From NCBI GenBank assembly GCA_964632045.1, contig CAZWBB010000001.1:1-64000 (forward strand): a DNA stretch of 64,000 nt, written 5' to 3'. The stretch is from an uncultured Methanosarcinales archaeon. Its GTDB lineage: Archaea; Nanobdellota; Nanobdellia; Woesearchaeales; GW2011-AR9. Below, in pieces: positions 1 to 63,902 of the stretch (the first letter of the stretch is position 1; every line of letters begins with the position of its first letter). The notes beneath the pieces are model-generated. The model was not told the origin of the DNA. It was given only the letters and a program-made list of their open reading frames with translations, and did no database searches. Made by a program: the position numbers and the translations under genes.

Positions 1-156
1 GTGGGGGGAAATAATTCACGTTCACAATATCCCTCTCGGGCGGCTGGTTTCTACTGTAGCAATGACAACTTCCGTGTGGATGGCGATGGCAGCCTCGACG
101 ACCGGGGTCGTTCTCGTGGGGTGATTTATCCGCGAAGCGGCGAAACGAAAAAATGA
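1..156 (+). CDS. 3' fragment of a leader-family paralog (array A); C-terminus ...GRSRGVIYPRSGETKK
   Basis: Nt 1-150 are ~85% identical to 770-905, the C-terminal coding region of the next paralog. Stop TGA at 154-156 overlaps ATG 153 (ATGA). Confidence 0.6.
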   Translation: MGGNNSRSQYPSRAAGFYCSNDNFRVDGDGSLDDRGRSRGVIYPRSGETKK

Positions 157-31054: not shown

Positions 31055-31247
31055 GAATATCACCTTCTTTGTATACCAAAAGCACAAACTTATCGAACAT
31101 TCAATCGTGCCTTTCGGATATCCTAGCAGCAATGTCCGAATATTTATTGCCGCCGAGAGATATCATAAACAATAGTCATGTTGTATTTAAATGTTTCTTT
31201 ACTTTTCATCCAAACCTTAATATACTATTAATAAACTACTGGGTAAT

Positions 31248-40054: not shown

Positions 40055-41097
40055 TTTTCTTTTCCATGGATGAGGTGCTGCATCAATCCGCCGCCCTCTC
40101 CGATGTCCTTGTCGATGACTGTAACATTCGCTTTCAATAGTCCCCGTACAGTTCTCTGATGCAACCTGAAGCGATGCAGATCCAGGTTTCCTTTCCCGTA
40201 CTGGGCATAGGCTCGCTTAAAACGTTCTACCTCTCCTCGAGCTTCATTTTTCATCAAGTCTGCACGTCCTCTTGCTGTTTGAATCATCATGTCTCTCTGA
40301 CCCTTAGCCTCTTCGACTTTTGTTGCTTTCACAGCCAGAGCTTCCTCCTGATATCTCTTTGCATCCAGTTTGGCATCCTGTAGATCGTGATAGGCATCTT
40401 CTACTTCCTTTGTAGGCAGTGTTACCGGTTGCAGCAGAAGAGAGTTGATCGTGATACCTACTCCATAACTATCCAGTATTTCCTGAGCAAGTATGGCCGC
40501 TTCACGCCAGATAAGTTCCTTACCAGTCTTCAATACTTGAGTATATTCCTTTCCGGCAATTACTTCCCGCAGAGCAGATTCAGCAACATCGGCGACTGTC
40601 TTATGAGGATTTCTTACATTGAACAGAAAGGCGCTGGGATCACTCTTCTTGTATTCCACGCTGTACATGACATGAAGTTCCCCTTCATCCCCCGTAACCA
40701 TCAATGATTCTTTGCTAAAATCTCCTTCTTCGTACTCTGTTTGCACCCCTGACTTTTTTGTCCGGAAACCTCTTTCCAGGCGGAAGACCTTATCCACGTT
40801 TACATCATAACCAACTTCCTGAGGATACCTACAATGGAAACCTGCTCCCTGAACACGTTCCCATAATCCTCCCATCCCCAGGAGGACTTTCTTGTGCCCT
40901 TGTCTTATCTCATAGCAGACCCGCTCATCAAGGTAGACCGTATCAACCTGATTGTTGTCAATCTTGTATTCCTTAAGAACTTCCGGCTTCATCAGATTGT
41001 GTACGCCAAACCAGACACCAATCCCTACAGCAGCTGCCCCGACAGGAATACCTACATACTTCCCTAATGCTTTGCCAAGATTTGATAACCGACCCAT
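40051..41097 (-). CDS. SPFH/band-7 protein, HflK-like
   Basis: N-terminal TM helix (YVGIPVGAAAVGIGVWFGV), SPFH core and coiled coil. Paired with 38987..40054. Confidence 0.65.
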   Translation of the reverse strand: MGRLSNLGKALGKYVGIPVGAAAVGIGVWFGVHNLMKPEVLKEYKIDNNQVDTVYLDERVCYEIRQGHKKVLLGMGGLWERVQGAGFHCRYPQEVGYDVNVDKVFRLERGFRTKKSGVQTEYEEGDFSKESLMVTGDEGELHVMYSVEYKKSDPSAFLFNVRNPHKTVADVAESALREVIAGKEYTQVLKTGKELIWREAAILAQEILDSYGVGITINSLLLQPVTLPTKEVEDAYHDLQDAKLDAKRYQEEALAVKATKVEEAKGQRDMMIQTARGRADLMKNEARGEVERFKRAYAQYGKGNLDLHRFRLHQRTVRGLLKANVTVIDKDIGEGGGLMQHLIHGKEK

Positions 41098-49494: not shown

Positions 49495-50055
49495 CTATTC
49501 TTTCATAAAAGCCCTGATGTAATCCTGGTTCTCAATCGTCTGAGCCATCACTAAGGTAAACCCTTTGAGCGCAATGACCAGGTCGTCCTCACTGCTTTCT
49601 CTGGTATGGACAGTTCCTGAGACTTTCCCGTCCCTCTCAAAGCAAAAGACTTGGGTGAGGGGTGAAGGGTGTTCAACAAAGTAGGCATGAGTCACTCCCA
49701 TCTCCTCCAGCCCTTTGTATTCCTCTTTTTTTAGAAGAGCTTTCCGGAGTACTTTTCTGAAGGGGATAACCTTGCCATTCTCTTGGTATTCACCTTTTCT
49801 GTTGAATGAAGCGACAGGATCCATCCTTCCCCATCTCTTCTTCCGCATGATGGAAAGATAGTCCTTTTTGTCATAAAGTCTTGCCTGGGCGATTACTTTT
49901 CTTTTCTTTGGATCAAGAATGTCTTCCAGGGAGATGTCCCTTGAGTCAGGCTGCAGGTAGTAGTCTGTGTAGATGAAACCTAATCTCTTGGGGTTTTCAC
50001 CTAGCTTGAGAATGTGGGTTCCGTCATCTTCCGTTCTTATCAGGTATTGTGTCAT
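49495..50055 (-). CDS. Hypothetical protein, terminal gene of the array-B operon
   Basis: 186 aa. Starts 18 nt downstream of the vWA gene stop. No motif. Confidence 0.45.
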   Translation of the reverse strand: MTQYLIRTEDDGTHILKLGENPKRLGFIYTDYYLQPDSRDISLEDILDPKKRKVIAQARLYDKKDYLSIMRKKRWGRMDPVASFNRKGEYQENGKVIPFRKVLRKALLKKEEYKGLEEMGVTHAYFVEHPSPLTQVFCFERDGKVSGTVHTRESSEDDLVIALKGFTLVMAQTIENQDYIRAFMKE

Positions 50056-50072
50056 TTTTGGTTACCGCTCTT

Positions 50073-51839
50073 TTATGCTATTCCATAGGTCTTAAACAGT
50101 CTGAGCATCTCATCCGGCAGTCGGTGTAATTCATCCCTGCCCAGCAGAGTGTAATGCTTAGGTCCGATGTGTTTTGTCAGCTCTTTTGCATAACCGTCGA
50201 ACTCCTTGCCGATAACGATGACAAAGGGAAACACTTTGTTGTCGTACAGTTCTTTGAGGACTTCAGGAGCCCCCTTATCGGTCGATTCCCCGTCAGTAAT
50301 GATGGTGATCCCCCGAGGTCGTTCGCCTTGTCTTTCCAACACATGGCCGACCGCTTTTGAACTGGCAGCCAGACGAGTTCCTGCAACATCACTTTTCCTA
50401 CATACAGAGATGATCTTGTTGGCCACTTGAGGATTGTAGGTTTCAGGGAAGTCTTTGATCCTATAAAGGTTACCGCTGAAAGCAAAGAGGCCGAATGGAT
50501 AGTCAGTAACTCCTAACGCTTCCCCCTGGATAAGTAATCCTGCTTTTATCTCATTGATGATATTGTAATGATCCAGATCTGTAGATGGACTGATGTCAGC
50601 CAGGACTGCCCAGGCCGGTCTGTGCTTAAAGCGGCTTTTGGAGACGAAGTGGCGGCCGTTCCTGCTGATGCTGGTCACTTCTCTCTCCAGATCGGTCTGC
50701 AAAAATTCTTCATATTCTAAGTCTTGACCGGAAAAATCCAGGCGTGAAGAACGATGTGTCTGTTTCAGGCGTCGGAAAATACTTTTCATGGAGCCGATGG
50801 CGTAGGCATACTTGTCCCGCAGCTCTTTTTCTTTACGAATGACCCAGTCGGAGTAATCTGGATTCACTTTGACGATGGAGATGTCGGCATCCTCGGATGC
50901 TTCTGTATAGAGACTTTCCCTATCTTTGTCATGCTTAGATGGTTTGGGCTTAGTCTTTTTCCCTTTTGGGTCCGGCTTTTCCTCCTTACCTTTGCCTTTC
51001 TTGAGCCGTTTGGGTCTTTTCTCCTTTTTGTCACGTCCTTCTCTGGGTTTGACTTCCCCCCCATAACCCTGCTGCGGGCTGCCAGGAGTCTTGCTGTGGT
51101 TGCCTTTTCCCTGCTGTTGGGGGAGACGTTTTATCTTCTGCTTGATGTCAAAATTCTCTTTGAATATCTGGTAGATCTTATCGACGGCTTCTTTGTCTTC
51201 ATAGATGGAATCGGCAGAATGACACAGTTCTACACATTCTTCCAGTATCTGCTGATGTTCTTCAGGGACAGGTTCAACTGTGCAGCCCAGCAGAGCCTGC
51301 TGCAGGAATTGTTCTCTGAAAGCGTCCAGCTCAGACATTTTTTTTATGCTTGGCCGGAAATATTTTATGGCATCGTGATGAACTTCCTTGTCATACTTGG
51401 CCAATCCAGGCAACTGCTCACAACGCTGCGCATCGATCCGTCTGTCTTTGACGATGTTATCTATGAATCCGGCCAGGGCAGGATTCTCGGTGAGGTCTGC
51501 ATGGTTCCTCTGCAGGTAGACTCCGACCACACCTTCTCCTTGATTCCTAATAGAATGGATCTCATCTCCGAAATATTCTTCATATTCCCTGATATGGTCA
51601 GCTTCATGAGCAGTGGAGTTGGCTATGTTCATCTCATTATCTCTTTTTTTCTTGCAGAGCTTCTCTCTTGCTGGCAGGAAGATCTTCGTTCCGTCAGTAG
51701 CAGGACAGCCGTTATCACCTTCGATCATCGAACCGCCCTGAATCTCGATGGGATGTTTTTGAGAGGCGCCTTTACCGATACGAAAATCTACCATCCTTTC
51801 CAGTTTTCCAAGCACTTCTGATGTTTTTACTGTGGTCAT
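50073..51839 (-). CDS. HExxH putative metallopeptidase N-domain, Lys-rich linker and vWA domain (DUF2201-like architecture)
   Basis: HEADH (STAHEADHIREYEEY). MIDAS DxSxS (AVLADISPSTD) with downstream T and ITDGEST motifs. About 70-aa K/E/P-rich low-complexity linker. ATGA overlap with 51836. Confidence 0.75.
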   Translation of the reverse strand: MTTVKTSEVLGKLERMVDFRIGKGASQKHPIEIQGGSMIEGDNGCPATDGTKIFLPAREKLCKKKRDNEMNIANSTAHEADHIREYEEYFGDEIHSIRNQGEGVVGVYLQRNHADLTENPALAGFIDNIVKDRRIDAQRCEQLPGLAKYDKEVHHDAIKYFRPSIKKMSELDAFREQFLQQALLGCTVEPVPEEHQQILEECVELCHSADSIYEDKEAVDKIYQIFKENFDIKQKIKRLPQQQGKGNHSKTPGSPQQGYGGEVKPREGRDKKEKRPKRLKKGKGKEEKPDPKGKKTKPKPSKHDKDRESLYTEASEDADISIVKVNPDYSDWVIRKEKELRDKYAYAIGSMKSIFRRLKQTHRSSRLDFSGQDLEYEEFLQTDLEREVTSISRNGRHFVSKSRFKHRPAWAVLADISPSTDLDHYNIINEIKAGLLIQGEALGVTDYPFGLFAFSGNLYRIKDFPETYNPQVANKIISVCRKSDVAGTRLAASSKAVGHVLERQGERPRGITIITDGESTDKGAPEVLKELYDNKVFPFVIVIGKEFDGYAKELTKHIGPKHYTLLGRDELHRLPDEMLRLFKTYGIA

Positions 51840-52870
51840 TTTATATCTGTTTCTAGTGTGTTCTTTATCTCCGGTATATCAACCTTCCATGGATCGATAA
51901 TCTTTACATTTTTAGGTTTGACTTCTGGCTTAGGTTTCTTTTTCTTTGGTGGCTTCATGTATGGTCTCAGGGTACTTCTGCCGGTGGGGAAAACATAGGG
52001 GTAGACTAGCGATGCTGCTAACCTTACAGGGTAGACTAAAGGATGAATTCCGTCCAGAAGAAGAAATCCTGCCACGGGGATAAGTGCCGCATTGGCTATG
52101 TCTGCTTCTGGGGAGTATCCTTTTCCTGCTTTGTCAAGAATGTCCTCGCCCCGCAGTTTTCGTGAAGCATATCCAAACAATAAGGGAAGGATTCCTCCCA
52201 GGAGTATTCCTGCTCCCCAGGGAATCCTGTCTTCCCAGGGAAAATCGTCAGAAATTCTTTTTATATCAAGTGTGTCCCTTCTTTTGTAGAGGCCGCTCTT
52301 GAAGCGTTTAATATCTTCGGGCGGTCTGAAAGTACCATATAGGTCCCAGATATTTCCATTTAAGTCCAGTCTTAATTGTTTTGTGATGCCCGCGCCATGA
52401 TGCAGAAATCTGTAGTGTGTCTCACGGACCCACTCTTCTTTTGCTGCAAGATGCGTCTGCATCGCTTTGAGATCATTTCCGGCCACACTTCTAACAAATT
52501 CAAAATATTCCCGCTGTTCTGGAGTGTGGACAAGACTGTTCTTTTGAGTCTCTGAGGTCTTCTGGCGGATCTCTTTATCGGTCCTGCTTAGGACGGATTC
52601 TAAAGCAGTGATCTCATGGGTGTTCAGTTCACGATCAGCGCTGAAAGCATTGTATAGATCGCTGTAGACAAGATATTCTTTTTTTGAGTCGTCGAAAGTG
52701 GGCTGCTCTGGAGTAAGTTTTTCCGGGAGTGAGATGCCAGCTTTGGCGATAGTCTCCTCTACTGTCGGTTCCAGTTTTCTCTCAGCAGCAAGCATGAAGC
52801 CGCTGCCCACCAGCAATCCACCAGCTAGAACAAGTGGAGTACTTTTCCTAAGCATGTATCTGTAGTTCAT
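51836..52870 (-). CDS. C-tail-family paralog, secreted subtype (signal peptide; C-term IIDPWKVDIPEIKNTLE)
   Basis: N-terminal MNYRYMLRKSTPLVLAGGLLVGSGFMLA signal. GxxxG-rich hydrophobic segment (GAGILLGGILPLLFGYASRKLRG). Conserved C-terminal motif. Confidence 0.75.
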   Translation of the reverse strand: MNYRYMLRKSTPLVLAGGLLVGSGFMLAAERKLEPTVEETIAKAGISLPEKLTPEQPTFDDSKKEYLVYSDLYNAFSADRELNTHEITALESVLSRTDKEIRQKTSETQKNSLVHTPEQREYFEFVRSVAGNDLKAMQTHLAAKEEWVRETHYRFLHHGAGITKQLRLDLNGNIWDLYGTFRPPEDIKRFKSGLYKRRDTLDIKRISDDFPWEDRIPWGAGILLGGILPLLFGYASRKLRGEDILDKAGKGYSPEADIANAALIPVAGFLLLDGIHPLVYPVRLAASLVYPYVFPTGRSTLRPYMKPPKKKKPKPEVKPKNVKIIDPWKVDIPEIKNTLETDIK

Positions 52871-53943
52871 TCTGAATCTTTCCTCACTTCTAATGTACTT
52901 TTTATCTCTGGTATCTCAACTTCCCATGGATCGATGATCTTTGCTTTTGGAGGTTCGATCTCAGGAGGTTCTGTTTCAGGCTCTTCTACCTGCACCTTTC
53001 CTGTTTTCTTCTTTTCGCTCGGGAAAATATATGGGCAGACTAACGCTGCCGCGATCCTTACTGGGTAGACCATTGGATGGATACTATCAAGAAGTATGAA
53101 TCCCGCGACGGGATTTGCAATAATGTTGATGTAATCACTTGTGCCTCCGTTTTCTCCATCACCTATAAATTCCTCGCCACGAATTCTCCTTACTCCATAA
53201 CTAAAAAGTCCTGGCAGCAGTAATCCCATAAAAAGACCCAGGGAGTAAGGTATCTTATCCTCCCAGGGGTAGTCGTCGATGAAGTCTCTAATCAGAAGGT
53301 TTTCTCTGCTGTTGTAGAGACCACTCTTGAAATGTTCTATTTCTTTGCTTGGATTGAATAGGTTCCTCAGGTATACGGGTTCTCCTTTTCTCCGGTCACC
53401 GCGGTCTTGCTTATGGATGTTTCCAGTGTACGGTGTAGAAAGATTGACGATCTTACCTGAACCATGATGCCAGTATCTGTCCACTGTTGAAGCCAACCAT
53501 TCTTCCTTTTTCTCAAGATGCAGGCGAAGTTCTTTAAGATCAGTGCTTTTGATTCCAAGAACATAAGTTACATATTTCTGTTCTGCTTCTGAACGGATTG
53601 CGTTGATGTCCCACAATTCCTCGCTCTTCTTACCTATTTCCTCCACCAATCTGTCCAGGATATATTCTAGCGCTTCGATCTCTCCAGTACTGAGTTCATC
53701 ATCGGTAGTGAATCTTTCATAAGCTCTGCTGTAGATAAGGAATTCTTGTTTTGGCTTATCGTAGATAGGCTCTTTTGGAGTCAGTCTTTCTGGTAGGGGG
53801 AAGTCGATGCTGGCAGGGATGCCTTCTTCTGCATTTTCTCCCTCGGTTGGTTGTTCACTTCCACTTAACATGATGCTTCCTGTCAACAATCCACCAGCTA
53901 GGATGAGTGGAGTTCCTTTCCTAAGTATCTTTTTGTAGTTCAT
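52867..53943 (-). CDS. C-tail-family paralog, secreted subtype
   Basis: Signal peptide MNYKKILRKGTPLILAGGLLTG. C-term KIIDPWEVEIPEIKSTLE. Confidence 0.75.
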   Translation of the reverse strand: MNYKKILRKGTPLILAGGLLTGSIMLSGSEQPTEGENAEEGIPASIDFPLPERLTPKEPIYDKPKQEFLIYSRAYERFTTDDELSTGEIEALEYILDRLVEEIGKKSEELWDINAIRSEAEQKYVTYVLGIKSTDLKELRLHLEKKEEWLASTVDRYWHHGSGKIVNLSTPYTGNIHKQDRGDRRKGEPVYLRNLFNPSKEIEHFKSGLYNSRENLLIRDFIDDYPWEDKIPYSLGLFMGLLLPGLFSYGVRRIRGEEFIGDGENGGTSDYINIIANPVAGFILLDSIHPMVYPVRIAAALVCPYIFPSEKKKTGKVQVEEPETEPPEIEPPKAKIIDPWEVEIPEIKSTLEVRKDSE

Positions 53944-54932
53944 GTTGTGTCTTTGAGGATGTTTTCTATCTCAGGGATCTCTACTTTCCAGGGATTGATG
54001 ATCTTTGGTTTAACTTTGGGCTTATTCATGAGCGGCTTCTTGTACTTTTTCGGTTTACGATTTCTAGTATGGAAAACATAAGGATAAATTATAGATGCAG
54101 CTAGTCGGATTGGGTAGACTAGAGGATGGATGCCATCAAGAAGAAAGATGCCGGCTGCTGGATTAAGTACAGCGTTAATTATATCTGAGTATCGAGCGGA
54201 TTGTTTTCTTGCATCAAATAAATTCTCACCACGTAGTTTTCGCGAGGCATATCCAAACAATACTGGAAGGAATCCTCCTAATAGCAGTCCTGCTCCCCAA
54301 GGTATTCTGTCTTCCCAGGGATGGTCTTCCTTGAATGTTTTTATGACAACATCAGGATATTTGTTGTAAACAACGTTAAGGAGATAGGTTCCTTTTGGTT
54401 CAAATACTGATTCAAGGTCACGGATATTCCCCTCGTCTAGATCAGCTAGGTATTTTGATGCCCCAAATCCGTGATGCCAGTATTTTCCTTCAGTAGTTGA
54501 TATCCATTCTTCCTTTGCTTTTAGATGTTTACGTAATTCTTTTAGGTCCTTGGCCATACGTTCAGTTAAGTAGAAATGATCCCTTCCTTGCTTCGATTTC
54601 ATTTGATAAGCTCTTTCAGTCTTATGTTGCAATTCCAGGATGGTTCTACTTAGCACGTGCTCCAAGGCGGTGATCTCGTGGGTGTCTAATTCTCCATCAT
54701 TGGTGAAAGCAGTGTACAATTCACTGAAGACCGAATATTCTTTTGTAGGATCACCAAGAAGCGGTTTCTCAGGAGTCATCCTTTCCGGCAGTGTTATCCC
54801 AGCAGCAGCAATCGTCTCTTCTACTGTCGGCTCTTCAGCAGCTTCGTGAGCTGGATAAAGAGCGCTGCCTACCAATAAGCCACCTGCCAGCGCAAGTGGA
54901 ATACTTTTTTTGATTATATTTTTGTATTTCAT
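53940..54932 (-). CDS. C-tail-family paralog, secreted subtype
   Basis: Signal peptide MKYKNIIKKSIPLALAGGLLVG. C-term KIINPWKVEIPEIENILK. Confidence 0.75.
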   Translation of the reverse strand: MKYKNIIKKSIPLALAGGLLVGSALYPAHEAAEEPTVEETIAAAGITLPERMTPEKPLLGDPTKEYSVFSELYTAFTNDGELDTHEITALEHVLSRTILELQHKTERAYQMKSKQGRDHFYLTERMAKDLKELRKHLKAKEEWISTTEGKYWHHGFGASKYLADLDEGNIRDLESVFEPKGTYLLNVVYNKYPDVVIKTFKEDHPWEDRIPWGAGLLLGGFLPVLFGYASRKLRGENLFDARKQSARYSDIINAVLNPAAGIFLLDGIHPLVYPIRLAASIIYPYVFHTRNRKPKKYKKPLMNKPKVKPKIINPWKVEIPEIENILKDTT

Positions 54933-54947
54933 CTTTTGCCTACCTCA

Positions 54948-56384
54948 TCATACAAATTTCTCCACAACCTCCATCAGCTCCTTAGCCATCTGGCCTCCTC
55001 CATGAGCGATGTCGTTCTCGTAGGTCACCAATGGATTGATAACCATGTCTCTGAACAGATCTCTCTGGGTGATGTTCGTTCCAGAAGCGATCCGTTGCGC
55101 TACTTCAACAGCTCCTTTCAGTCCAAGATCCTTGTTGTAGGTGTGTACCTTGCCGCGCATCTCATCAAGCACACTGGAGATCATCTCTGCTGTATCATAC
55201 TCGATTCCCGGTGCACGGGCCATGAGGATGTCTGTAGTATTGTCTTTAGAGGGGTAGCCCATCTTTAGCTGGTTGAACCTCTGTAATGTTGCGTCGTTCC
55301 ATTCATTGTGGGTATAGTTGGCGTGGAAATTACCCAGCGCAACAAACCTGAAGTTTGGTCCTGCTCTGAGCAGCTCGTAACCAAAATGGGTGTTTACTGG
55401 CAACTCGCCGGTTTCCAGGAAAACGTTCAATGCTGTAAACTCATCCTGGTGAATCGGAGCGGCTTCTTCCAAAGCATAAACGCCGTCGTGTATCAATGCG
55501 AGGGTCAGTGCTCCCGGTGAAAAGACTGGTTTGTCTATACCTGGAACAAACTGTCCGATCGTCCGTGAGACACGGAAAGAGCTTCCACCTTTCTCGTAGA
55601 AGTAAGGGATACTTCTCTCACAGGCATATTCCCTGGTAAGTACGCTCTTTCCATTTCCGGTCGGTCCGTTGAGGATTATCGGTCTTGTGTATTCATCCAT
55701 GTAAGTAAAGAACCTGTCCTTTTCTCCTTTCTGGTCCTGGTAAGGGAAAGCATCTTTGATCATCCTGGGGGCAAAGTGTTGCTTTACAAAACAGGTGAAA
55801 TCTGTCTCTTCCATGCTCTTTCGCGGCGTGATGACGGTCGGAGCCTTCACTTCCTTCTTCTTGACACTTTTTCCTTCAACATCGGCCATAATCCTTTCCA
55901 GCATCACCAAAGGCAGAAAGGCTTTGCATTCTGAAGAGGTGGTGGTTAGAGTGGCCCTTTTCCTTCCGTCGCTTTCAAAGAGATCCAATACACCCTGCTC
56001 CTCCTTGCTGCGGATATTATAGCGGTGGGTGATACCCATCTCCTGCAACTTTTCTAATCCTTCTTCTTCAGGCAGCTCATCGGCATCTGCCCGGTCGATG
56101 TCGTATTTTCGGCCATTGACACGCAGAGTCAAATGGTCTTCATCCTCAAAAGTAAGGATGGAGAGAAATTCACCGTTCTTCAGCTGAACACGGTCTTTTT
56201 CCGGCAGATGGGAACTGATAATTCCTAGTTCACTATCATCCTGCATCGAACTCACTTCGTAGTGTATGGGCAGTTCCAGTTCATCCTCAAGAGTAGGCGT
56301 CTTCACTGCCACTTTGTCACCTTGGTCGTCCGTATTGACCAGCACAACTCCTTTTTCCTGAAAAGCTATGGTATATTGTTTCAT
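54948..56384 (-). CDS. AAA+ ATPase, CbbQ/NorQ/MoxR-like, with N-terminal extra domain
   Basis: Walker A LNGPTGNGKS (compare CbbQ GPTGCGKT). Walker B-like VYALEEA. Start set at MKQYTIAFQ so that ATG overlaps the TGA of the upstream paralog (ATGA). The track ORF extends to 56444. Confidence 0.7.
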   Translation of the reverse strand: MKQYTIAFQEKGVVLVNTDDQGDKVAVKTPTLEDELELPIHYEVSSMQDDSELGIISSHLPEKDRVQLKNGEFLSILTFEDEDHLTLRVNGRKYDIDRADADELPEEEGLEKLQEMGITHRYNIRSKEEQGVLDLFESDGRKRATLTTTSSECKAFLPLVMLERIMADVEGKSVKKKEVKAPTVITPRKSMEETDFTCFVKQHFAPRMIKDAFPYQDQKGEKDRFFTYMDEYTRPIILNGPTGNGKSVLTREYACERSIPYFYEKGGSSFRVSRTIGQFVPGIDKPVFSPGALTLALIHDGVYALEEAAPIHQDEFTALNVFLETGELPVNTHFGYELLRAGPNFRFVALGNFHANYTHNEWNDATLQRFNQLKMGYPSKDNTTDILMARAPGIEYDTAEMISSVLDEMRGKVHTYNKDLGLKGAVEVAQRIASGTNITQRDLFRDMVINPLVTYENDIAHGGGQMAKELMEVVEKFV

Positions 56385-57367
56385 TTTTTTCCTCCAAATC
56401 TGTTTTCTAGTATGTTTTTTATCTCTGGAATGTCTACACTCCATGGATCGATAAGCCTGAAAGGTTCTTGTTCTATTACTTCTTCCGTCTCGTCTTCTTC
56501 CGCCTGTGGCTGTTGTTTTTGATGGGTTGCTTTCTTTCCTGTGATCAGAGATTCAAAAAACTCATAGATCATGTTCTTGTCGGAGCGGGTATATCCTATG
56601 GAGAGTCCTCTTTGGGAATCTGTGTTTTTGAATTCTTCTCGAAGAATCTCAAAATGCTTGTCTAGTTTTTTCCTTAGCCTTTTTATTCTCTGTTTGCTGA
56701 ATGGTCCTTTCACGCTTTTAATATCCTCGTAAGCACGCATGAACCTGTCAAGGAAAAAATCAGGGTTCTTCAGTTTTCTTTCGAGATGTTTATATGTGGG
56801 AATGTACCCAATTGCATGAAGTGGACCGCAGGGGCTACCTTTGTAGCCTTTGAGACCTGTCAACATTTCCGCTGCGAATAATCCTGCTACGACGGGCAGA
56901 TAGAGGCGTTCAGGAACCCCAAGATAAATGGAAGCTTCTGTCAATCCCAGGACTCCTGCAATAGAGGCTGCGAATCCAGGAAGGCGGCTTCTACGCAGAT
57001 ACGAGTCCCAGTGAGAGATGTATCCTCTTTTCCGGGTGAGTTGGACCTCGACGCTGCCTGGATGCCAGATTCTCCAGTGGCCTTCACTTAAGTATTCCAT
57101 ATAATCCTCCTCCTCATGCGGTACCTTTTGCCCTGTGGCAGATTCAGTCCTCTCCATGAGAGTACGGAAAAGTGGATAATCTTTCTCTTCAAGATCGGGT
57201 CTGAAAAGTACACCCTGGTAATAGTCGTTTTCGGAACTGCCAAGGTTCCTGTATAGGCGGACAATATACCCGTCTAAGGTTGTCTGCGCCATATACTTCC
57301 TTCTCTTCTTCACTTCAATGATATCTTTAAAGATTCCCTGGGAGAACCTCATGGTGGTGTAGCTCAT
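56381..57367 (-). CDS. C-tail-family paralog, cytoplasmic/membrane subtype (C-term LIDPWSVDIPEIKNILENRFGGKK)
   Basis: Family core (YYQGVLFRPDLEEKDYPLFRTLMER). GxxxG hydrophobic segment, then GPLHAIGYIP. Conserved C-tail. Confidence 0.75.
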   Translation of the reverse strand: MSYTTMRFSQGIFKDIIEVKKRRKYMAQTTLDGYIVRLYRNLGSSENDYYQGVLFRPDLEEKDYPLFRTLMERTESATGQKVPHEEEDYMEYLSEGHWRIWHPGSVEVQLTRKRGYISHWDSYLRRSRLPGFAASIAGVLGLTEASIYLGVPERLYLPVVAGLFAAEMLTGLKGYKGSPCGPLHAIGYIPTYKHLERKLKNPDFFLDRFMRAYEDIKSVKGPFSKQRIKRLRKKLDKHFEILREEFKNTDSQRGLSIGYTRSDKNMIYEFFESLITGKKATHQKQQPQAEEDETEEVIEQEPFRLIDPWSVDIPEIKNILENRFGGKK

Positions 57368-58137
57368 CTTTCCTTCCCTCCTTGCAGCACATTCTCTATC
57401 TCAGGGACTTCTACTTCCCACGGATCGACTACCCCAGTGGGGACCATTACCACAGATTCTGGCTCCTCTGCGTCCTCATCGAGTTCTGCATGTACCCCTA
57501 AAGCAGCGTAGTACACGGCACGCTCAAGTTTTAACAGATGTGGACTACGCATCTGTACAGAGAGACCTTTCTGAAATGCTGTAAATGGGAATAAATCTGT
57601 GATCAGATCATAATAGTAATCTATTTTCTCCTCCATCTTGCCAAGTTTTTTCAGGCTTAGTGAATCTCTATTATTATCAAATCTGGTGTATGCTTCCAGG
57701 AATCTATCAGGGATGTGATTGGGATGCAGGGCTTTGTTCTTTTGGAGGTAGTATGACAACATGAATCCGGCTTTTGCCCTAACTCCTGCAGGCAGCATTT
57801 TCGTCTGTTCCGGGTTGAGATGGATGGTAAGGTTATGACTGTCATAGTGCAGCTTCAATCCACCCCTGGCTAAATACTCGTCAAATGAATCTGAGTCATT
57901 CGCTATACCCCGCTTAGTTGCATTGGCAATCCTGTTGGTCATGTCCTTGAAAAAGTGAGAGAAGCTCTGAGGAGAGTGGATCACTGCCTGGAAATCCTTT
58001 TGGCCTGCCTCTCTATAGAGCCGGTAAAATCTATACCTTCCCAAATCAGTATGCATGTAGAAAGCACCATCTCTCCTGATCTCTAATCTACTTCTTCCAG
58101 TTACCTGGTCTGCCATGGTCGTTACCTGAAGAGTCAT
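57364..58137 (-). CDS. C-tail-family paralog (short, no hydrophobic segment; C-term VVDPWEVEVPEIENVLQGGKER)
   Basis: Conserved C-tail. GGAGG encoded by the GG codons precedes the next ATG. Confidence 0.7.
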   Translation of the reverse strand: MTLQVTTMADQVTGRSRLEIRRDGAFYMHTDLGRYRFYRLYREAGQKDFQAVIHSPQSFSHFFKDMTNRIANATKRGIANDSDSFDEYLARGGLKLHYDSHNLTIHLNPEQTKMLPAGVRAKAGFMLSYYLQKNKALHPNHIPDRFLEAYTRFDNNRDSLSLKKLGKMEEKIDYYYDLITDLFPFTAFQKGLSVQMRSPHLLKLERAVYYAALGVHAELDEDAEEPESVVMVPTGVVDPWEVEVPEIENVLQGGKER

Positions 58138-59108
58138 TCTCTCTTCACCTCCAACACATTCTCGATCTCAGGGATTTCTACACTCCAAGGGTCGATCAAT
58201 TTTACTGGTTCTGCTCTCTCTATAGGTTCTGCTGTCTCATCCGGAGATTCACCACACGCTACCCAATTATTTATCCCTGTGCTGAGATAGGCGATGCGTT
58301 CAAACACTCTGTCTTGGTCGGAGTTGACAAAAGTGATGGAGAATCCTTTCTGTTTGTAAGTTTGTTTGAATATCTCCTTGATAACCTCATAGTATAAGTC
58401 CATCTTGTTGATCATCTTCATGATTTTTCTTGGAGAAGCTGTCTTCTTTTTCTTTTCAAGAGCATTATGAGTCCGCATAAATCTTTCAGTGGCATAATCC
58501 GGATGCATCATCTTATTTTTGGCAAGGAACCATGCCGGAACGTAGCCGAGGGCATGGACAGGACCTACCCACTCTTTCCTTTCCACTAATGTAAATGCAC
58601 CGCCCATCCCTTCAAGAACTGAGTACATCATTCCAGCTAACACCATGTCACCACCACCTGATCCAAACTGCTCGTTATATGCCGCCAAAATAACTCCCGC
58701 AAAACCCGCCAACGTGCATACTGTCCCAGGAATGTGGGCGATGTTGGCCGCTCTTCTGTGTAGTCTTCCAGTGAATGGATATCCTTTGGTGTTTACATTC
58801 AATACAGAACCGTCAGAATAATTTTTCACCATCCCTTTTCTGGCGATGTAACCGTAATAATCATCGACATCATTGTCAACATGCTCCCCCGTGATATCCT
58901 CCATCCTGTCCGTAAGCAGCTTGAACAGAGCAGGATCCTTCTCTGTTGAAAAGACAGAACCCTCATATTTCTGACCTAAAGCATGATGCAATCGGGAGTA
59001 CAAGCCGTTACCATGACGGTCCTGAAAGTAGTACTCGTCATCTCTCTTGATGGATATCCTTTTGAAACCTTTTACAGTATCCTCGATTGTGGTTACTTTG
59101 TAGTTCAT
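58134..59108 (-). CDS. C-tail-family paralog (C-term LIDPWSVEIPEIENVLEVKRE)
   Basis: Start set at MNYKVTTIED (ATGA overlap with upstream stop at 59105-59108). Gly-rich hydrophobic segment, then GPVHALGYVP. Confidence 0.7.
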   Translation of the reverse strand: MNYKVTTIEDTVKGFKRISIKRDDEYYFQDRHGNGLYSRLHHALGQKYEGSVFSTEKDPALFKLLTDRMEDITGEHVDNDVDDYYGYIARKGMVKNYSDGSVLNVNTKGYPFTGRLHRRAANIAHIPGTVCTLAGFAGVILAAYNEQFGSGGGDMVLAGMMYSVLEGMGGAFTLVERKEWVGPVHALGYVPAWFLAKNKMMHPDYATERFMRTHNALEKKKKTASPRKIMKMINKMDLYYEVIKEIFKQTYKQKGFSITFVNSDQDRVFERIAYLSTGINNWVACGESPDETAEPIERAEPVKLIDPWSVEIPEIENVLEVKRE

Positions 59109-59833
59109 CTTCTTCCCCCCTGTGCTACGTTTTCTATCTCTGGTATGTCTACTTCCCATGGGTCGATGATTTCAGTTGGCACTGTTGCGATGATGGGCTG
59201 TTCTTCCACAACTTCCTCTTTGGATTCTTCAGCCACCCGAAGGATTTTGCTGTAATGATTGTATAGGAGGTATAGATTCCTGCTTCTGGTGAATAAAGAA
59301 AAACCGTTCTGTTTACCAGAAAAAATCTTATCAAGAAGGGAAAAATGCTGATCCAGTTCCTGACCCAAACGCAAGGCCTCATCCTTCTGGTTAAAGCCAA
59401 GGGTGTGGTATTCTTTGTGCGTCTGAAGGAATTCTTTCCACAATTCGTCTCCTGTTTCAACTAGTATGTCCTCGGCACCTGGTTCTGGGATCGTTATGTC
59501 GGTGTATTTAGTGTCGACAGATAAGCCTTTTCGATTTACAAAATTGATAAATTCTGCTGGAGAGGTATCTATCCCGGACGGTTTACCTTGCTTCTCTTCG
59601 ATTCTTTCAACCAACAGCTTAAAGAGGTTGTAGTCCTTTTCATCATCCGTGAAATCTGGTTTGAACAGAGTTCCAAGGTATTGGGCGACTGGGGGAATAC
59701 CGTTTTCCATCTTGTAGACCCTTAGAAACAGGCAATCATCCAGTTCTGCCTGAGCCAGCATCTTATCTCCGCATCTAATTTCGGTTACAGGTTTTCCAAA
59801 TCCTCTGTCTACTTCCTGAACTGAATAGCTCAT
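59105..59833 (-). CDS. C-tail-family paralog (MSYSVQEVDRGFGK N-type; C-term IIDPWEVDIPEIENVAQGGRR)
   Basis: N-terminus is near-identical to 60750 and 62704 members. Conserved C-tail. Confidence 0.75.
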   Translation of the reverse strand: MSYSVQEVDRGFGKPVTEIRCGDKMLAQAELDDCLFLRVYKMENGIPPVAQYLGTLFKPDFTDDEKDYNLFKLLVERIEEKQGKPSGIDTSPAEFINFVNRKGLSVDTKYTDITIPEPGAEDILVETGDELWKEFLQTHKEYHTLGFNQKDEALRLGQELDQHFSLLDKIFSGKQNGFSLFTRSRNLYLLYNHYSKILRVAEESKEEVVEEQPIIATVPTEIIDPWEVDIPEIENVAQGGRR

Positions 59834-60753
59834 CCTTTCACCCCCTGCAGCAAACTCTTGATTTCAGGAATGTCTACTTCCCATGGGTTGATTAGGGGCA
59901 ATGGTTGTCCTGAATCCTCTGGCTGTATCAGATGCTTTTGATTTCCTGTCTTTAGGTAAGAGAAAAAACCAAGTACTTCATCAAGGGTTCCTTTATAATG
60001 GATGGTAAGGCCCTGATAATCCTGAGTCTGGTGAAATTGTCCTTCCAGGAGTGGAATCAAAGGACATAATCTGTTTCTTAGAGACTGACATTCTCCGTAG
60101 TTCGTAGAATTTTCTGCCTTCAGGGCAATACCTACAGCTTTTTCCCACAACCAGGAAGGGTGGCTGAACTTGCGGGAGTAATATTGTTTGTATGGAAGGT
60201 GGCCTAGGCATCTAAGTGGACCAAGCCAGTATTTGGATTCTCTCTTTTCACCCAGATAAATGCCGATTAATAATTCTGGGGTTGTGGACATGAGGAAGGC
60301 GAGAGGTGCAGGAAGGCCAACTTGATTCAGCACACAGGCCCCGGCAGTTATTCCTGCTACTATGGTAGCGATGCCCAAAGGCAATGATTTATCGCGGGCA
60401 TAATCATCATAGCCGTAGGGGGTAAAACGGGTACTTTTATGATTGATTCTTAGAATTGTCTTATCAGAGTACTTAACAAGTCCCTCCCGTAGATATTTGG
60501 GATAGGTGCCAATGCTATTATCAATTTCGATCCCTGGATAATCCTCCAGAAAGGCTGTTAAGTTTTGAAATCTTTTATAATCAGCGGGCAAAATTTGCAG
60601 CGGTCTGAAGAGGACTCCATAAGCACAATCTTTGTGGCCCCATATCCTCAGGCAGTCTCCCTCCAAGGTGGTCTGCTGTAGGGATCTTTTGCCATCACTA
60701 AGGCAGCCTCCTCCAAGTATGGGATGAGTTCTGGTGACTATTCTATATGTCAT
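59830..60753 (-). CDS. C-tail-family paralog (C-term LINPWEVDIPEIKSLLQGVKG)
   Basis: Hydrophobic GxxxG segment, then GPLRCLGHLP. 3' ~45 nt are near-identical to the 60750 member. Confidence 0.75.
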   Translation of the reverse strand: MTYRIVTRTHPILGGGCLSDGKRSLQQTTLEGDCLRIWGHKDCAYGVLFRPLQILPADYKRFQNLTAFLEDYPGIEIDNSIGTYPKYLREGLVKYSDKTILRINHKSTRFTPYGYDDYARDKSLPLGIATIVAGITAGACVLNQVGLPAPLAFLMSTTPELLIGIYLGEKRESKYWLGPLRCLGHLPYKQYYSRKFSHPSWLWEKAVGIALKAENSTNYGECQSLRNRLCPLIPLLEGQFHQTQDYQGLTIHYKGTLDEVLGFFSYLKTGNQKHLIQPEDSGQPLPLINPWEVDIPEIKSLLQGVKG

Positions 60754-61769
60754 CCTTTCACCCCCTGCAGCAAACTCTTGATTTCAGGAGCATCTACGTC
60801 CCATGGGTTGGTGATCTTTGGCTTGTCATCTAATTCTGGAATATCCATCTCCCACGGATCGATGATCGGAAAAGAGTCCTCCTTCGCGAGTACGCTCTGT
60901 CTGCAGCAGTCTATTCCGGCGAAAGTTTCGTTTACTTTGTCCAGTATACCATCCCGGTAGCTGATGGAAAGACCTTTCTGTCTTTGGGTGTAAGGAAAGA
61001 TTGATGTAAGATATGAAAAGTATTTGTCTGCTTTTCTTTGCAGGAAGTATCTGCTTATTCTGTTGCTGCCTTGTAGTTTGTCGTTAGTGTGGAGAAATTC
61101 ATCCCATACTTTTGCCGGGCCGAGAATCCTTTCTCTCATGTACATATGGCTGAATGCCCAGCCTAAGGAGTGGAATGGGCCTGACCATCCTCTCTCTTTG
61201 AAATTGTGGAAGCCGGCGCAGATCTCAAAGATTCCCATGGCCATCATCCCTTCTAACATAGTACCTGGAAATCCGACTGATTGTATAAATGGTCCTCCAA
61301 TAGCAGCAGTACCAATCGCTGATGTCAGCAGACCGGGGATTCTGCCTTTCCAGCTGAGGTTCTTATCCAACCATTGTGATAACTGTCCTTGCCAGAACTT
61401 ATGTGAATTCCGTTCCAATTTTAGTTCAATTCCATCTACACTGGCATTGAGATACTGGTCACCCATCAGGTTCATCCTGTAAGCAGCAGGCGAAGTATCG
61501 ATACCACTCTTCTTTCCCGTGTAAGTTTCAATAGCTTCTACCATCGTCAGGAAATCCTGGTATCCAGCAGCATTAGCTCCAACCTTCTTGAAAAGTATCC
61601 CATGATGGTCCTTGTTGGCAAGAGGCACTCTATTCTCCTGCAGTCCATGATAGGTCCTGTAAAAAAATCCATCATCCAATTCCACCTGAGCCAGCATCTT
61701 CTTTCCACATCTCACTTCCGTGACCAGTTTTCCAAGTCCTCTGTCTACTTCATGGATGGAATAACTCAT
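60750..61769 (-). CDS. C-tail-family paralog with duplicated C-tail motif (IIDPWEMDIPELDDKPKITNPWDVDAPEIKSLLQGVKG)
   Basis: MSYSIHEVDRGLGKLVTEVRCG N-type. GPFHSLGW motif. Tandem duplication of the DPW..PEI tail. Confidence 0.75.
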   Translation of the reverse strand: MSYSIHEVDRGLGKLVTEVRCGKKMLAQVELDDGFFYRTYHGLQENRVPLANKDHHGILFKKVGANAAGYQDFLTMVEAIETYTGKKSGIDTSPAAYRMNLMGDQYLNASVDGIELKLERNSHKFWQGQLSQWLDKNLSWKGRIPGLLTSAIGTAAIGGPFIQSVGFPGTMLEGMMAMGIFEICAGFHNFKERGWSGPFHSLGWAFSHMYMRERILGPAKVWDEFLHTNDKLQGSNRISRYFLQRKADKYFSYLTSIFPYTQRQKGLSISYRDGILDKVNETFAGIDCCRQSVLAKEDSFPIIDPWEMDIPELDDKPKITNPWDVDAPEIKSLLQGVKG

Positions 61770-62707
61770 CTTTCCTTGCCTCCCTGCAGTACATTCTTTA
61801 TCTCAGGAATCTCTACTTTCCATGGGTCGATTATGGGGGATGGGTCCTGCACGATTTCTGGTTCTTCTTCTGTTATAACATTTATTCCTGCAAGTATGCC
61901 GGAAAAAGTGTTGTAAACATCATCCAGGCTCCTGCTGCTATAAGTGACAAAAAACCCTTTGGCTAGTTCAGTATTCTTGAATGTCTCTTCCAGGACGGCA
62001 AAACTATCCTCCATCTTTCTGCATAAAGAATGATATTTCTTCATGTTGCAGATATTACCCTGCAGGGACTGGGCTTTCTGGTGGGTTTTCGTTAGTTCAC
62101 TCAAGATTCTATCAGTGTTGTAGTATTTACTTAGGACATATTCAGTTGGAAAATGTGCCAGGCCGTGGAATCCTTCTCTGAGTTCCAGGCCTCTAATTAA
62201 TCCCACACTACAATCGGTTAAGGCTGCAAAAAGACCTACTGCTAGGGCAGCTCCGACACCTACACTCATCCCGGAGATAGCAGCAGAAGAAGTCAACCAA
62301 CCAGGAATACTGCCTTTCTTTCTGATATATTCATTGCGGTTAGGCGAATATTGGGTTCTGTCATTTGTATTGAGCTCCCATCTTAGGGGTCCTAATTTGT
62401 GATAGGTCCCTGGATGCTTGGCCCAACCCACGAAATTTTCTGGAGTGATGTCCAATCTGCTAGAGCGGCCTGATTGCTCCTCCATCCCTCGGGCCAGAAG
62501 CTCAAATGTATGGTAGAATTCTTGGTCCATTTTTGTCGGTCGGGTAAAGAGTACCCCTTGATAATCCGAACTGTTTCGGCCTCCATATATCCGAAGTTCA
62601 AGATCTCTCTCCAAAGATGTGACTCGGGCTAGATATGAATCATCGTACTTGATTTCCTCTACCTTGCTGCCATTGATCCAATCTCTGGTGTCTACAGAAA
62701 TGCTCAT
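61766..62707 (-). CDS. C-tail-family paralog (C-term IIDPWKVEIPEIKNVLQGGKER)
   Basis: Family core GVLFTRPTKMDQEFYHTFELLARGMEE. GxxxG segment. Confidence 0.75.
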   Translation of the reverse strand: MSISVDTRDWINGSKVEEIKYDDSYLARVTSLERDLELRIYGGRNSSDYQGVLFTRPTKMDQEFYHTFELLARGMEEQSGRSSRLDITPENFVGWAKHPGTYHKLGPLRWELNTNDRTQYSPNRNEYIRKKGSIPGWLTSSAAISGMSVGVGAALAVGLFAALTDCSVGLIRGLELREGFHGLAHFPTEYVLSKYYNTDRILSELTKTHQKAQSLQGNICNMKKYHSLCRKMEDSFAVLEETFKNTELAKGFFVTYSSRSLDDVYNTFSGILAGINVITEEEPEIVQDPSPIIDPWKVEIPEIKNVLQGGKER

Positions 62708-63702
62708 CCTTCCACCTCCAGTACATTCTGTATCTCAGGAATCTCTACATCCCACGGGTCGATGATGGGCGAGGGTTCTGAAGGATTTGCATCCTCCGCT
62801 TCTCCTAGCCCGCTTCCATGCAAGATCTCTGCGAAGGTATCATATAAAGAATCAAAATCATGACTCTTGAGACTGATCGAGAATCCTTTTTGGAGAGTTG
62901 TATAGCCGAATATCTCTCTCAGAAATCCAAAGTAATAATCCTGTGTGTTAAGGAGAGAAGTGTATCTCCTTTGCTGCTTGATACAGTTGCCCAAAGATTC
63001 CATTTCTCTATGTGCTTCCAGGAATTTACCAAGTACAAACTGGGGGTCTTTTAGATTTTTGAGGCGGTGAAAGAATGATGGAGCATGTCCCAAGCTGAAT
63101 AATGGACCTCGCCGGCCATTCTGTGCTGGCATACACAAATCAGCATATGTTCTGACTCCGATTATTTCAGGCAAGGTAGAGCAGCCTATGAGTGGCAACG
63201 AAATATATAGCGGAATATCTGGCGCGGAAAAAAGCACACTCGCTGACGTTAAAATACCTCCGATTGAGGTCATTAACCCCATAATATGAGGTGTTTCTCG
63301 CAGATACGAGTACATTTTTGGTGAGTAATAACCTGAATTCCAGACGTGCTTCGTAATACGTTTATCCTGGATGCGCAGTCTGAGATCGAAGTAGCCAACA
63401 TCTGCGCTTGCTCCCTTCCTTTTCACATAGTCGACGAAGCTGGGAGCGTCTGTCTTCAATCCACTGGACTTTCCTGTGCAGATTTCAATTCTCTCAACAA
63501 GGGATTTGAATGTTTGATGTTTCTTCTCATCAACCGTTAGGTTGGGAATGAATAGGACCCCTCTGTGACTTCGGCCATCATCATACGCCCGGAAATAGAC
63601 GTTATCATCTACAGCAACCTGGGCAATCCTCGTATTGTCACAAATAACTTCCGTGACCAGTTTTCCAAGTCCTCTGTCTACTTCATGGATGGAATAGCTC
63701 AT
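62704..63702 (-). CDS. C-tail-family paralog (MSYSIHEVDRGLGKLVTEV N-type; C-term IIDPWDVEIPEIQNVLEVEG)
   Basis: The 5' ~50 nt are near-identical to the 60750 member. GPLFSLGHAP motif. Confidence 0.75.
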   Translation of the reverse strand: MSYSIHEVDRGLGKLVTEVICDNTRIAQVAVDDNVYFRAYDDGRSHRGVLFIPNLTVDEKKHQTFKSLVERIEICTGKSSGLKTDAPSFVDYVKRKGASADVGYFDLRLRIQDKRITKHVWNSGYYSPKMYSYLRETPHIMGLMTSIGGILTSASVLFSAPDIPLYISLPLIGCSTLPEIIGVRTYADLCMPAQNGRRGPLFSLGHAPSFFHRLKNLKDPQFVLGKFLEAHREMESLGNCIKQQRRYTSLLNTQDYYFGFLREIFGYTTLQKGFSISLKSHDFDSLYDTFAEILHGSGLGEAEDANPSEPSPIIDPWDVEIPEIQNVLEVEG

Positions 63703-63902
63703 TCTCCCTCCTCCAGCACATCTATCGTCACCTGTACTATCGTCTGTGGTTTCAGTTTATCTTTTAGGAAAGAAGGAAGTATTATTACAGATTGCTTTCC
63801 GTGCTTGGCTATCTTCTTAGTCAGTACTATCGGCTTCAATATTACACCACCAACACATAAATGATGTGTCTCTAACACACCCCACAGAACCACCTGACAC
63901 AT
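63699..63902 (-). CDS. Small ORF at the head of the array-B operon, possibly an AbrB/SpoVT-like swapped-hairpin protein
   Basis: C-terminal ...KHGKQSVIILPSFLKDKLKPQTIVQVTIDVLEEGE resembles AbrB/MazE-type (K.G.vtIP..hR..L.h..GD.h.h). ATGA overlap with the first paralog. True start may be an internal TTG. Confidence 0.3.
   Translation of the reverse strand: MCQVVLWGVLETHHLCVGGVILKPIVLTKKIAKHGKQSVIILPSFLKDKLKPQTIVQVTIDVLEEGE

Follow-up and report, generated by a model that had tools for sequence, protein, structure and literature searches.

Introduction

To our knowledge, client recognition by the widespread pairs formed by a MoxR AAA+ ATPase and a VWA protein is largely unknown, and the established clients are few, namely cNOR and Rubisco. 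NorQ and NorD insert FeB into membrane-bound cNOR. [quoted passage not shown] Rubiscos encoded beside cbbQ/cbbO share a C-terminal motif required for activation, which in turn needs the CbbO MIDAS and an acidic surface residue on Rubisco (PMC5437159). More generally, the vWA domains of MoxR systems have been proposed to capture a partner peptide (Kaur et al., 2020; PMC7159879). In this work, we describe a locus, array B, in which a pair of this kind is encoded among eleven paralogous genes whose products carry a common C-terminal tag; it lies in a stretch of 64,000 nucleotides (hereafter the window) from an uncultured archaeon of the Woesearchaeales (GenBank assembly GCA_964632045.1, contig CAZWBB010000001.1, positions 1 to 64,000).

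We consider it somewhat probable that array B constitutes the expanded, tail-tagged client set of a remodelling machine of the NorQD/CbbQO type. The module would comprise four parts: one or more tail-tagged clients, an ATPase with an extra N-terminal domain, a VWA adaptor of the NorD/CbbO type, and a protein of ~185 aa related to the N-terminal domain of the ATPase. No description of such a module was found in the searchable literature, and it represents an undescribed, rare variation on the MoxR-VWA chaperone theme, in which the client arrays have expanded and the clients bear an explicit tag at the C-terminus.

Results

Organization of the operon and the C-terminal tag

Array B consists of 11 paralogous, co-oriented open reading frames (ORFs) on the minus strand (B1-B11, 51836-63702), which are part of a single, tightly packed operon (49495-63902) in the order 67-aa ORF, B1-B8, AAA_5 ATPase, B9-B11, 588-aa VWA protein and the 186-aa protein s186 (Table 1). 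ATGA overlaps join most adjacent genes between 51836 and 63902, and a GGAGG Shine-Dalgarno sequence lies 8-10 nt upstream of the start, embedded in the final codons of the preceding gene; the residues that follow the tag (e.g., QGGKER) are therefore partly dictated by the ribosome-binding site of the next gene. Pairwise identity among the B bodies is 16-40%, and neither the 67-aa ORF, s186, the B proteins nor the other tagged proteins matched any Pfam, NCBIfam or PADLOC entry.

The most conserved feature of the array, absent from an earlier note on this DNA made from the sequence alone, is the C-terminal tag. The motif (I/L)(I/T)(D/N)PWxV(E/D)(I/V/A)PEI occurs near the C-terminus of all 11 B proteins, ~10 residues before the stop, and at its core positions P, W, V, P, E and I the paralogs show no variation. 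The codons of the tag vary synonymously, which indicates selection on the peptide rather than on the DNA, and the low predicted local distance difference test (pLDDT) values of the tail in an AlphaFold2 (AF2) model of B1 suggest that it is probably flexible. Duplicated tails were observed in B3 and in several distant members of the family (P0047, P0054 and P0056).

Distribution of the tag and the module

The related loci fetched were 58 in all, and those holding a VWA gene, plus the window, constituted our census. Among these, 28 loci have the ATPase and VWA genes together, and one or more adjacent ORFs with a (D/N)(P/V)W tail were found in 26 of them, with 1-15 tagged ORFs per locus (15 in L024, at least 14 in L005); another locus (L009) encodes six tagged membrane proteins of 166-198 aa. 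Across loci, the tails follow the pattern (D/N)PWx(V/I)x(I/V)P(E/K)(I/L), being alike within a locus and different between loci (IPEI or IPKL; DVWRIEIEP in bacteria), and they are carried by unrelated bodies, including the B family, a signal/anchor type, and proteins of 150-280 aa with or without hydrophobic segments. A segment with a Kyte-Doolittle (KD) value of at least 1.4 is present in 59% of the tagged ORFs, compared to 39% of the remaining ORFs of these loci (P=0.003).

The module has its closest relatives in metagenome-assembled genomes of Woesearchaeota, Pacearchaeota and Nanoarchaeota. Archaeal loci display the order tagged gene(s), ATPase, tagged gene(s), VWA and s186, and bacterial loci the order s186, B-family protein, ATPase and VWA, with a single client bearing the DVWRIEIEP tail; a single client in a fixed four-gene module is the arrangement of most bacterial and many archaeal loci. 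No nor or cbb (Rubisco) genes were found in the window or in the related loci.

The B family itself is very rare, with 59 proteins at E<=1e-3 among 1.84 billion cluster representatives in an exhaustive profile search, and it has no match among PDB sequences or PDB folds. A word-indexed homolog search with the B alignment recovered only the same organism; scans for the tag pattern in GTDB genomes, IMG/VR and JGI metagenomes returned pattern matches, none of which was confirmed as a B1 relative, and a VWA scan of viral contigs found nothing. In one relative (P0062; JGI 3300072015, a 154-kb contig), the cassette encodes proteins of 223 aa, ATPase, VWA, 179 aa and 302 aa, and is placed between two phage-integrase genes, adjoining a large-terminase-like gene; this context hints at a mobile or proviral location, and the IMG/VR scans were negative. 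Two Band_7 (SPFH) genes directly follow the module in the Aerophobetes locus (L011, 5426-7326), and an HflK/HflC-like pair is encoded in the window (38987-41097, minus strand), ~9 kb from array B.

The tag could also be viewed as an alternating-hydrophobic beta-strand (W-x-V-x-I) that adds to a sheet of a neighbouring subunit, in which case the clients would build a membrane-associated polymer or surface apparatus assembled by the ATPase and the VWA protein. The W-x-(V/I)-x-(I/V)-P pattern, the beta-sheet of the B-family N-domain in the AF2 model, the sharing of one tag by many different bodies in one locus, and the ectodomains that signal/anchor-type members would expose all fit this possibility; however, tagged proteins without a B-type sheet domain are common, and no repeat or coiled-coil polymer signature was found; we regard it as very unlikely.

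The ATPase, the VWA adaptor and s186

On sequence criteria, the ATPase is assigned to the CbbQ/NorQ/GvpN subgroup of MoxR AAA+ proteins. It matches PF07728 (AAA_5) with 36.7 bits, against a Pfam gathering cut-off of 22, displays a Walker A motif (GPTGNGKS) at residue 240, and among PDB sequences its best match is CbbQ (5c3c, E=3.7e-12), with NorQ at E=2.5e-8. It falls short of identity with the named members, scoring 38 bits for GvpN (TIGR02640) against a cut-off of 267, and bearing a 215-aa N-terminal extension foreign to GvpN, NorQ and CbbQ. Residues ~90-167 of this N-domain are related to s186 (BLASTP E=4e-5), which is present in nearly every related locus, closing the module in archaea and opening it in bacteria; hhalign detected no relationship between s186 and the B family.

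The profile of the VWA adaptor matches NorD (E=7.7e-16), with positions 326-524 aligning to NorD 371-577, finger region included. Its C-terminal VWA domain bears a complete MIDAS (DxSxS...T...D), and 42 aligned homologs all keep its DxSxS and the later Asp. In the AF2 model of this protein, the N-domain (1-240) is confident, linker stretches within ~245-305 have low pLDDT, and 331-389 contains helices. Its 52 homologs belong mostly to DPANN archaea and, more distantly, to bacteria such as Aerophobetes, and one carries the annotation 'nitric oxide reductase activation protein'.

An HExxH motif (HEADH, H78-E79-x-x-H82) in the N-domain of the adaptor is invariant in all 42 aligned homologs, archaeal and bacterial, as are E85, N119, P120, D132 and R134, with E118 nearly invariant; at the aligned place NorD has a degenerate AHASDR. 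These residues suggest that the N-domain may be metal-binding or peptidase-like, and the tail could then act as a 'follower peptide', a signal for processing: the HExxH domain would cleave it, perhaps after ATP-dependent presentation, and the clients would be matured or activated in this way, which would be compatible with docking. Besides the invariant residues and their degenerate counterpart in NorD, the zincin-like location of HExxH, within a long helix that follows short strands (AF2), favours cleavage; the N-domain, however, matched no peptidase family in Pfam or among PDB sequences, and the homologous NorD domain docks on NorQ (PMC13036017). We consider tail processing rather improbable.

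Comparison with described systems

NorQ belongs to the same MoxR subfamily (AAA_5) as the array B ATPase, and NorD shares with the array B adaptor the layout of an N-domain, a long disordered linker, a finger, a VWA domain with MIDAS, and a C-terminal end; a further likeness would be the membrane protein as client. Unlike NorQ/NorD, the array B module is not accompanied by nor genes, its ATPase has the additional 215-aa N-domain, a free relative of this domain exists (s186), the adaptor N-domain keeps an intact HExxH, and the putative clients are many, with unrelated bodies and C-terminal tags. The CbbQ/CbbO system provides the best PDB sequence match of the ATPase, and its clients, also encoded in the neighbourhood, share a short C-terminal motif; nevertheless, no Rubisco is encoded here, the tag is different (H/KR in CbbQ/CbbO versus DPWxVxIPEI), and up to 15 candidate clients occur per locus versus one enzyme.

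Rea1/Midasin, whose MIDAS binds the ubiquitin-like (UBL) domains of Rsa4 and Ytm1, is a giant single polypeptide of eukaryotes, and what it binds is not a terminal peptide but a folded UBL domain in which a Glu is conserved. Finally, the vWA-MoxR ternary systems (VMAP, iSTAND and others) resemble array B in the order of third component, MoxR and vWA, and in paralog diversification. They differ in that the B proteins had no VMAP or effector domain hit, the VWA protein has no C-terminal effector domain, and the module occurs in DPANN-type archaea and Aerophobetes-like bacteria, whereas the ternary systems are those of multicellular bacteria.

The hydrophobic hairpin of the B-family body

The earlier note had described one Gly/Ala-rich hydrophobic stretch in most B proteins, followed by WxGP.H.LG.xP. 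Uncharged Gly/Ala/Ser-rich stretches are indeed present in 9 of the 11 proteins, and the two short members (B5 and B7) lack the stretch as claimed, and the motif as well. The B1-type members, however, have two consecutive segments and not one. In B1-B4, B6 and B8, segment 1 is charge-free after a basic flank (over 25-37 residues in B1-B4 and B6, and 15 in B8), and is followed by a short loop, often containing G-x-P, and by segment 2, where a conserved acidic residue precedes a conserved Gly by 4-5 positions, and (W/C)-x-G-P-x-(H/F/R)-x-(L/I)-G-(H/W/Y)-x-P comes next. Of the 8 proteins upstream of the ATPase, 6 carry G-P-x-(H/F/R)-x-(L/I)-G-(H/W/Y), namely B1, B3, B4, B6, B8 and, degenerated to EGFHGLAH, B2. 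The leading W, taken before as a shared feature, is present in only 3 of the 11 proteins, and the motif is absent after the stretch in B9-B11; there, the stretch that had been quoted (GAGILLGGILPLLFG) is followed instead, ~40 residues on, by a different conserved sequence, LLD(G/S)IHP(L/M)VYP(V/I)R. The motif recurs as W(C)GP(L/V)HA(L/I)GF(V/L)P in B relatives from other metagenomes, and is thus more than chance; in the family alignment many members have Y, F, R or S in place of its His, and this speaks for a structural function and against that of a ligand.

The AF2 model of B1, obtained from a 52-sequence alignment (pLDDT 86; predicted template modelling score, pTM, 0.80), is rich in beta structure in its N-terminal part (1-110) and helical, but for one strand, in its C-terminal part (200-300), and it ends in a low-confidence tail. 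Between the two folded parts are helices at 128-159 (pLDDT ~90), 165-174 and 178-190 (pLDDT falling from ~80 to 56-62). The hairpin segments are uncharged and display low amphipathicity (hydrophobic moment, muH, 0.05-0.18), with values of 1.2-2.0 in 19-residue KD windows (KD19). The maximum KD19 is 1.4-2.0 in the hairpin proteins, versus 2.5-3.1 in membrane proteins of the window and at most 1.57 in soluble ones; likewise, the summed Hessa energy is +1.6 to +5.8 kcal/mol for the B hairpins, -1.6 to -4.3 for true membrane proteins of the window, and at least +4.8 for soluble proteins. The N-terminal anchors of two HflK/C-like proteins of the window have a KD19 of 1.7-1.9 and Hessa values of +2.7 to +4.2. 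Among 27 hairpin-bearing members of the family, the density of K+R is 0.17 per residue before segment 1 versus 0.08 in the inter-segment loop, which is net acidic; a basic flank and a non-basic loop are consistent with both ends of the hairpin being in the cytoplasm. Furthermore, the hairpin behaves as a removable module, since the short paralogs lack both segments and keep the flanking domains, and its position is conserved in most long members of the family, bacterial ones included.

Of the two proposals made in the earlier note, membrane insertion or pore formation, the former is plausible, given the uncharged segments of low amphipathicity, the basic flank, the removable module and the placement of the helices in the AF2 model, and we consider it likely that the B proteins associate with the membrane. 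Alternatively, the segments would be buried or subunit-interface helices, and the B proteins would be soluble cytosolic proteins, globular or oligomeric. Their marginal hydropathy agrees with this alternative, as do the conserved Asp and Glu within the segments of orthologs, the first helix, confidently predicted and continuous with a soluble helix from residue 128, and a pTM that suggests one compact unit. Conversely, charge-free segments of 25-37 residues with a very low hydrophobic moment, the joint loss of both segments with intact flanking domains, the low pLDDT (56-62) of the second helix pair, the basic flank and acidic loop, and a hydrophobicity equal to that of the HflK/C-like anchors argue against buried helices, which we regard as unlikely. 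If the B proteins are clients, the hydrophobic segments are most likely a membrane hairpin of the ancestral client family.

Glycine zippers and pore formation

GxxxG glycine zippers had been claimed for these segments, and pore formation had been suggested from them. Against composition-preserving shuffles, (G/A/S)xxxGxxx(G/A/S/T) was observed 9 times versus 7.1 expected (P=0.29), and GxxxG 10 times versus 9.2 expected (P=0.44); overall, GxxxG, small-xxx-small and zipper spacings were not enriched (P 0.29-0.67). The hairpins of B1, B3 and B8 have no strict GxxxG, B6 has none in its first segment, and no conserved zipper register was found in the B-family alignment. Small-residue-rich helices are the likeness to glycine-zipper channel formers of the VacA, MscS and MscL type, from which the B proteins differ in that the (G/A/S)xxxGxxxG register is neither conserved nor enriched, and in lacking fold similarity. 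In Pfam, PADLOC and the PDB, none of the known pore-forming toxins, effectors, channels or defence systems resembles the B family in sequence or fold. Pore formation is supported by none of the tests made, and Gly/Ala-rich hydrophobic stretches alone are a poor ground for calling glycine zippers or pores.

A broader version of this idea would have the B proteins as membrane-active effectors that form pores or channels (e.g., abortive-infection or antagonistic effectors) within a MoxR-vWA conflict system, held or released by the ATPase and the VWA protein, and oligomerizing through their Gly-rich helices. Acidic residues conserved inside the Gly/Ala-rich hairpin segments, diversified tandem paralogs (16-40% identity), a client-MoxR-vWA gene order as in vWA-MoxR ternary conflict systems (PMC7159879), and the cassette located between integrase and terminase genes in one relative are compatible with it. 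On the other hand, besides the chance-level zipper spacing and the lack of similarity to pore formers or channels, PADLOC and VMAP gave no hits, viral contigs yielded no relative, fixed four-gene modules with a single client are common, unlike variable effector cassettes, and 41% of the tagged proteins have no hydrophobic segment at all. An effector function of this kind is, in our view, quite unlikely.

The signal/anchor-type members B9-B11

The bodies of B9-B11 consist of an N-terminal signal/anchor, a ~185-aa domain, a hydrophobic segment followed by SRKLRGE and, further on, a second hydrophobic region with the invariant LLD(G/S)IHP(L/M)VYP(V/I)R, a Lys-rich linker and the tail. Their n- and h-regions are clear (e.g., MNYRYMLRK, then 20 uncharged residues), and a clear fit to the -3/-1 cleavage rule was not seen. 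These three proteins, earlier suggested as the exported subset, are not an exported soluble one; they retain further hydrophobic segments, the Lys-rich linker and the tag of the cytosolic members, which implies a membrane-anchored ectodomain with a cytoplasmic tail. Signal/anchor-type relatives at 2811-3761 and 7560-8513 of L005 have lipobox-like N-termini (LLGGC and AVSC), which suggests lipoprotein-type anchoring in that organism.

Features of the operon and of the window

The coordinates of the operon features are given in Table 1. Elsewhere in the window, array A (153-10688, plus strand) comprises 11 tandem paralogs of 230-292 aa with a common, near-identical N-terminal 25-mer, M(N/E)ILKPLK(H/R)GNVLTEEE(A/V)LKD(L/I)E, followed by at least three body types. 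It is interrupted by a 596-aa VWA-like protein (4716-6506) with the MIDAS sequence DTSSS, 21% identical to the array B adaptor. Array A thereby mirrors array B, its tag being N-terminal where that of array B is C-terminal; within the window, no ATPase is encoded inside it, and its N-terminal tag was found in none of the other 58 loci. The archaeal nature of the window is seen from its genes for the universal archaeal PUA protein, a TIM of archaeal type and a prepilin peptidase similar to FlaK, and the closest VWA relatives point to a DPANN-like organism. A 679-aa protein (34700-36739, minus strand) with an N-terminal signal-like segment and many Cys-rich repeats (C..G.C...DSCGN...C) is probably secreted or located at the surface, and two adjacent coiled-coil-like proteins with Pro-rich tails (PPPPPP) are encoded at 29603-31132 (minus strand).

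Table 1. Genes and sequence features of the array B operon (positions in the window, nt).
Feature	Position	Strand	Description
67-aa ORF	63699..63902	-	Operon head; stop overlaps B1 start; membership of the system uncertain
B1, 332 aa	62704..63702	-	Hairpin aa 137-190 (63133-63294); motif GPLFSLGH, 63085-63108; tag DPWDVEIPEI, 62731-62760
B2, 313 aa	61766..62707	-	Hairpin 62180-62314; degenerate motif EGFHGLAH; tag 61799-61828
B3, 339 aa	60750..61769	-	Hairpin 61200-61340; motif GPFHSLGW; two tag copies in tandem, DPWEMDIPEL (60831-60860) and NPWDVDAPEI (60780-60809)
B4, 307 aa	59830..60753	-	Hairpin 60247-60387; motif GPLRCLGH; tag 59860-59889
B5, 242 aa	59105..59833	-	Short B-family member without hairpin or motif; tag 59135-59164
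B6, 324 aa	58134..59108	-	Hairpin 58581-58751; motif GPVHALGY; tag 58164-58193
B7, 257 aa	57364..58137	-	Short B-family member without hairpin or motif; tag 57397-57426
B8, 328 aa	56381..57367	-	Start overlaps B7 stop as ATGA; hairpin 56843-56983; motif GPLHAIGY; tag 56420-56449
CbbQ/NorQ/GvpN-like MoxR AAA+ ATPase, 478 aa	54948..56384	-	Walker A 55644-55667; extra N-terminal domain of ~215 aa
B9, 330 aa	53940..54932	-	Signal/anchor type: N-terminal hydrophobic segment, ectodomain, hydrophobic region 54063-54305; motif DGIHPLVYPIR, 54105-54137; tag 53967-53996
B10, 358 aa	52867..53943	-	Signal/anchor type; tag 52903-52932
B11, 344 aa	51836..52870	-	Signal/anchor type; tag 51866-51895
NorD/CbbO-like VWA adaptor, 588 aa	50073..51839	-	N-terminal helical domain, disordered Lys/Glu/Pro linker, finger region, VWA domain; HEADH (aa 78-82), 51594-51608; MIDAS DISPS, 50583-50597, and ITDGE, 50286-50300
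s186, 186 aa	49495..50055	-	Stand-alone relative of the ATPase N-terminal domain

Discussion

From the gene content of the operon, the tag and its distribution, the ATPase and VWA homologies and the modular hairpin, we infer an overall function for the array B module in which tag binding by a receptor, membrane embedding and remodelling would be combined. The flexible tail of the clients would act as a docking peptide, through which a single machine would recognize many different proteins on the cytoplasmic side, with three candidate receptors: the VWA/MIDAS face, the N-domain of the ATPase, or s186. The B-family body would be one cytosolic alpha/beta domain, interrupted by a two-helix, moderately hydrophobic hairpin rich in Gly, Ala and Ser, which would lie in the membrane with both ends cytoplasmic. 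GP.H.LG.xP would represent the Gly/Pro/aromatic start of the helix leaving the hairpin and, as such, would be a structural element at the interface and not a motif of a pore. B9-B11 would constitute a second body type, with an N-terminal signal/anchor, an ectodomain, membrane segments and a cytoplasmic tail. By analogy with NorQD/CbbQO, the outcome would be the ATP-driven remodelling, maturation or (dis)assembly of the clients at the membrane.

Several observations weigh against this proposal. The invariant HExxH of the adaptor hints at processing of the tag instead of, or besides, docking. The tag lacks a universally conserved acidic residue, as D alternates with N, PK can stand for PE, and some loci have Q at W+3; the ligand of the MIDAS is consequently not obvious. 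A search for charge-swap covariation between the tag class (IPE or IPK) and the ATPase, the VWA protein and s186 yielded no clear receptor. The separating columns it returned were counted in dozens (e.g., VWA 401 and s186 129, each with K versus D/E), were confounded with phylogeny, and were set aside. Regarding the membrane, the hydrophobicity of the hairpin is marginal, with positive summed Hessa energies versus the negative ones of true transmembrane proteins, and orthologs have a conserved Asp in segment 1 and a conserved Glu in segment 2. In addition, 41% of the tagged ORFs have no hydrophobic segment at KD>=1.4, which indicates that the system is not restricted to membrane proteins.

Since the candidate clients are encoded beside the machine, and share one tail that covaries with the locus, client recognition becomes directly testable in this module. 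The module accounts for ~12 kb of 'dark matter' genes of a small archaeal genome, or ~22 kb of the window when array A is included, and array B defines a protein family without a known fold relative.

A more general idea, which we put forward tentatively and hold to be less probable than not by some distance, is that the (D/N)PWx(V/I)xIP tail is a general, portable cytoplasmic signal for the recruitment or sorting of unrelated membrane and soluble proteins in DPANN archaea, so that one AAA+/VWA machine would serve a whole repertoire of them, up to 15 per locus. The mirror-image array A of the same genome, with its N-terminal tag, has a VWA protein of its own. If so, the tail would define a previously undescribed client-tag pathway, and among MoxR-VWA systems the module would be the first for which a linear recognition peptide is defined, with a possible role in building or remodelling the cell envelope or the host-contact apparatus of these episymbionts.

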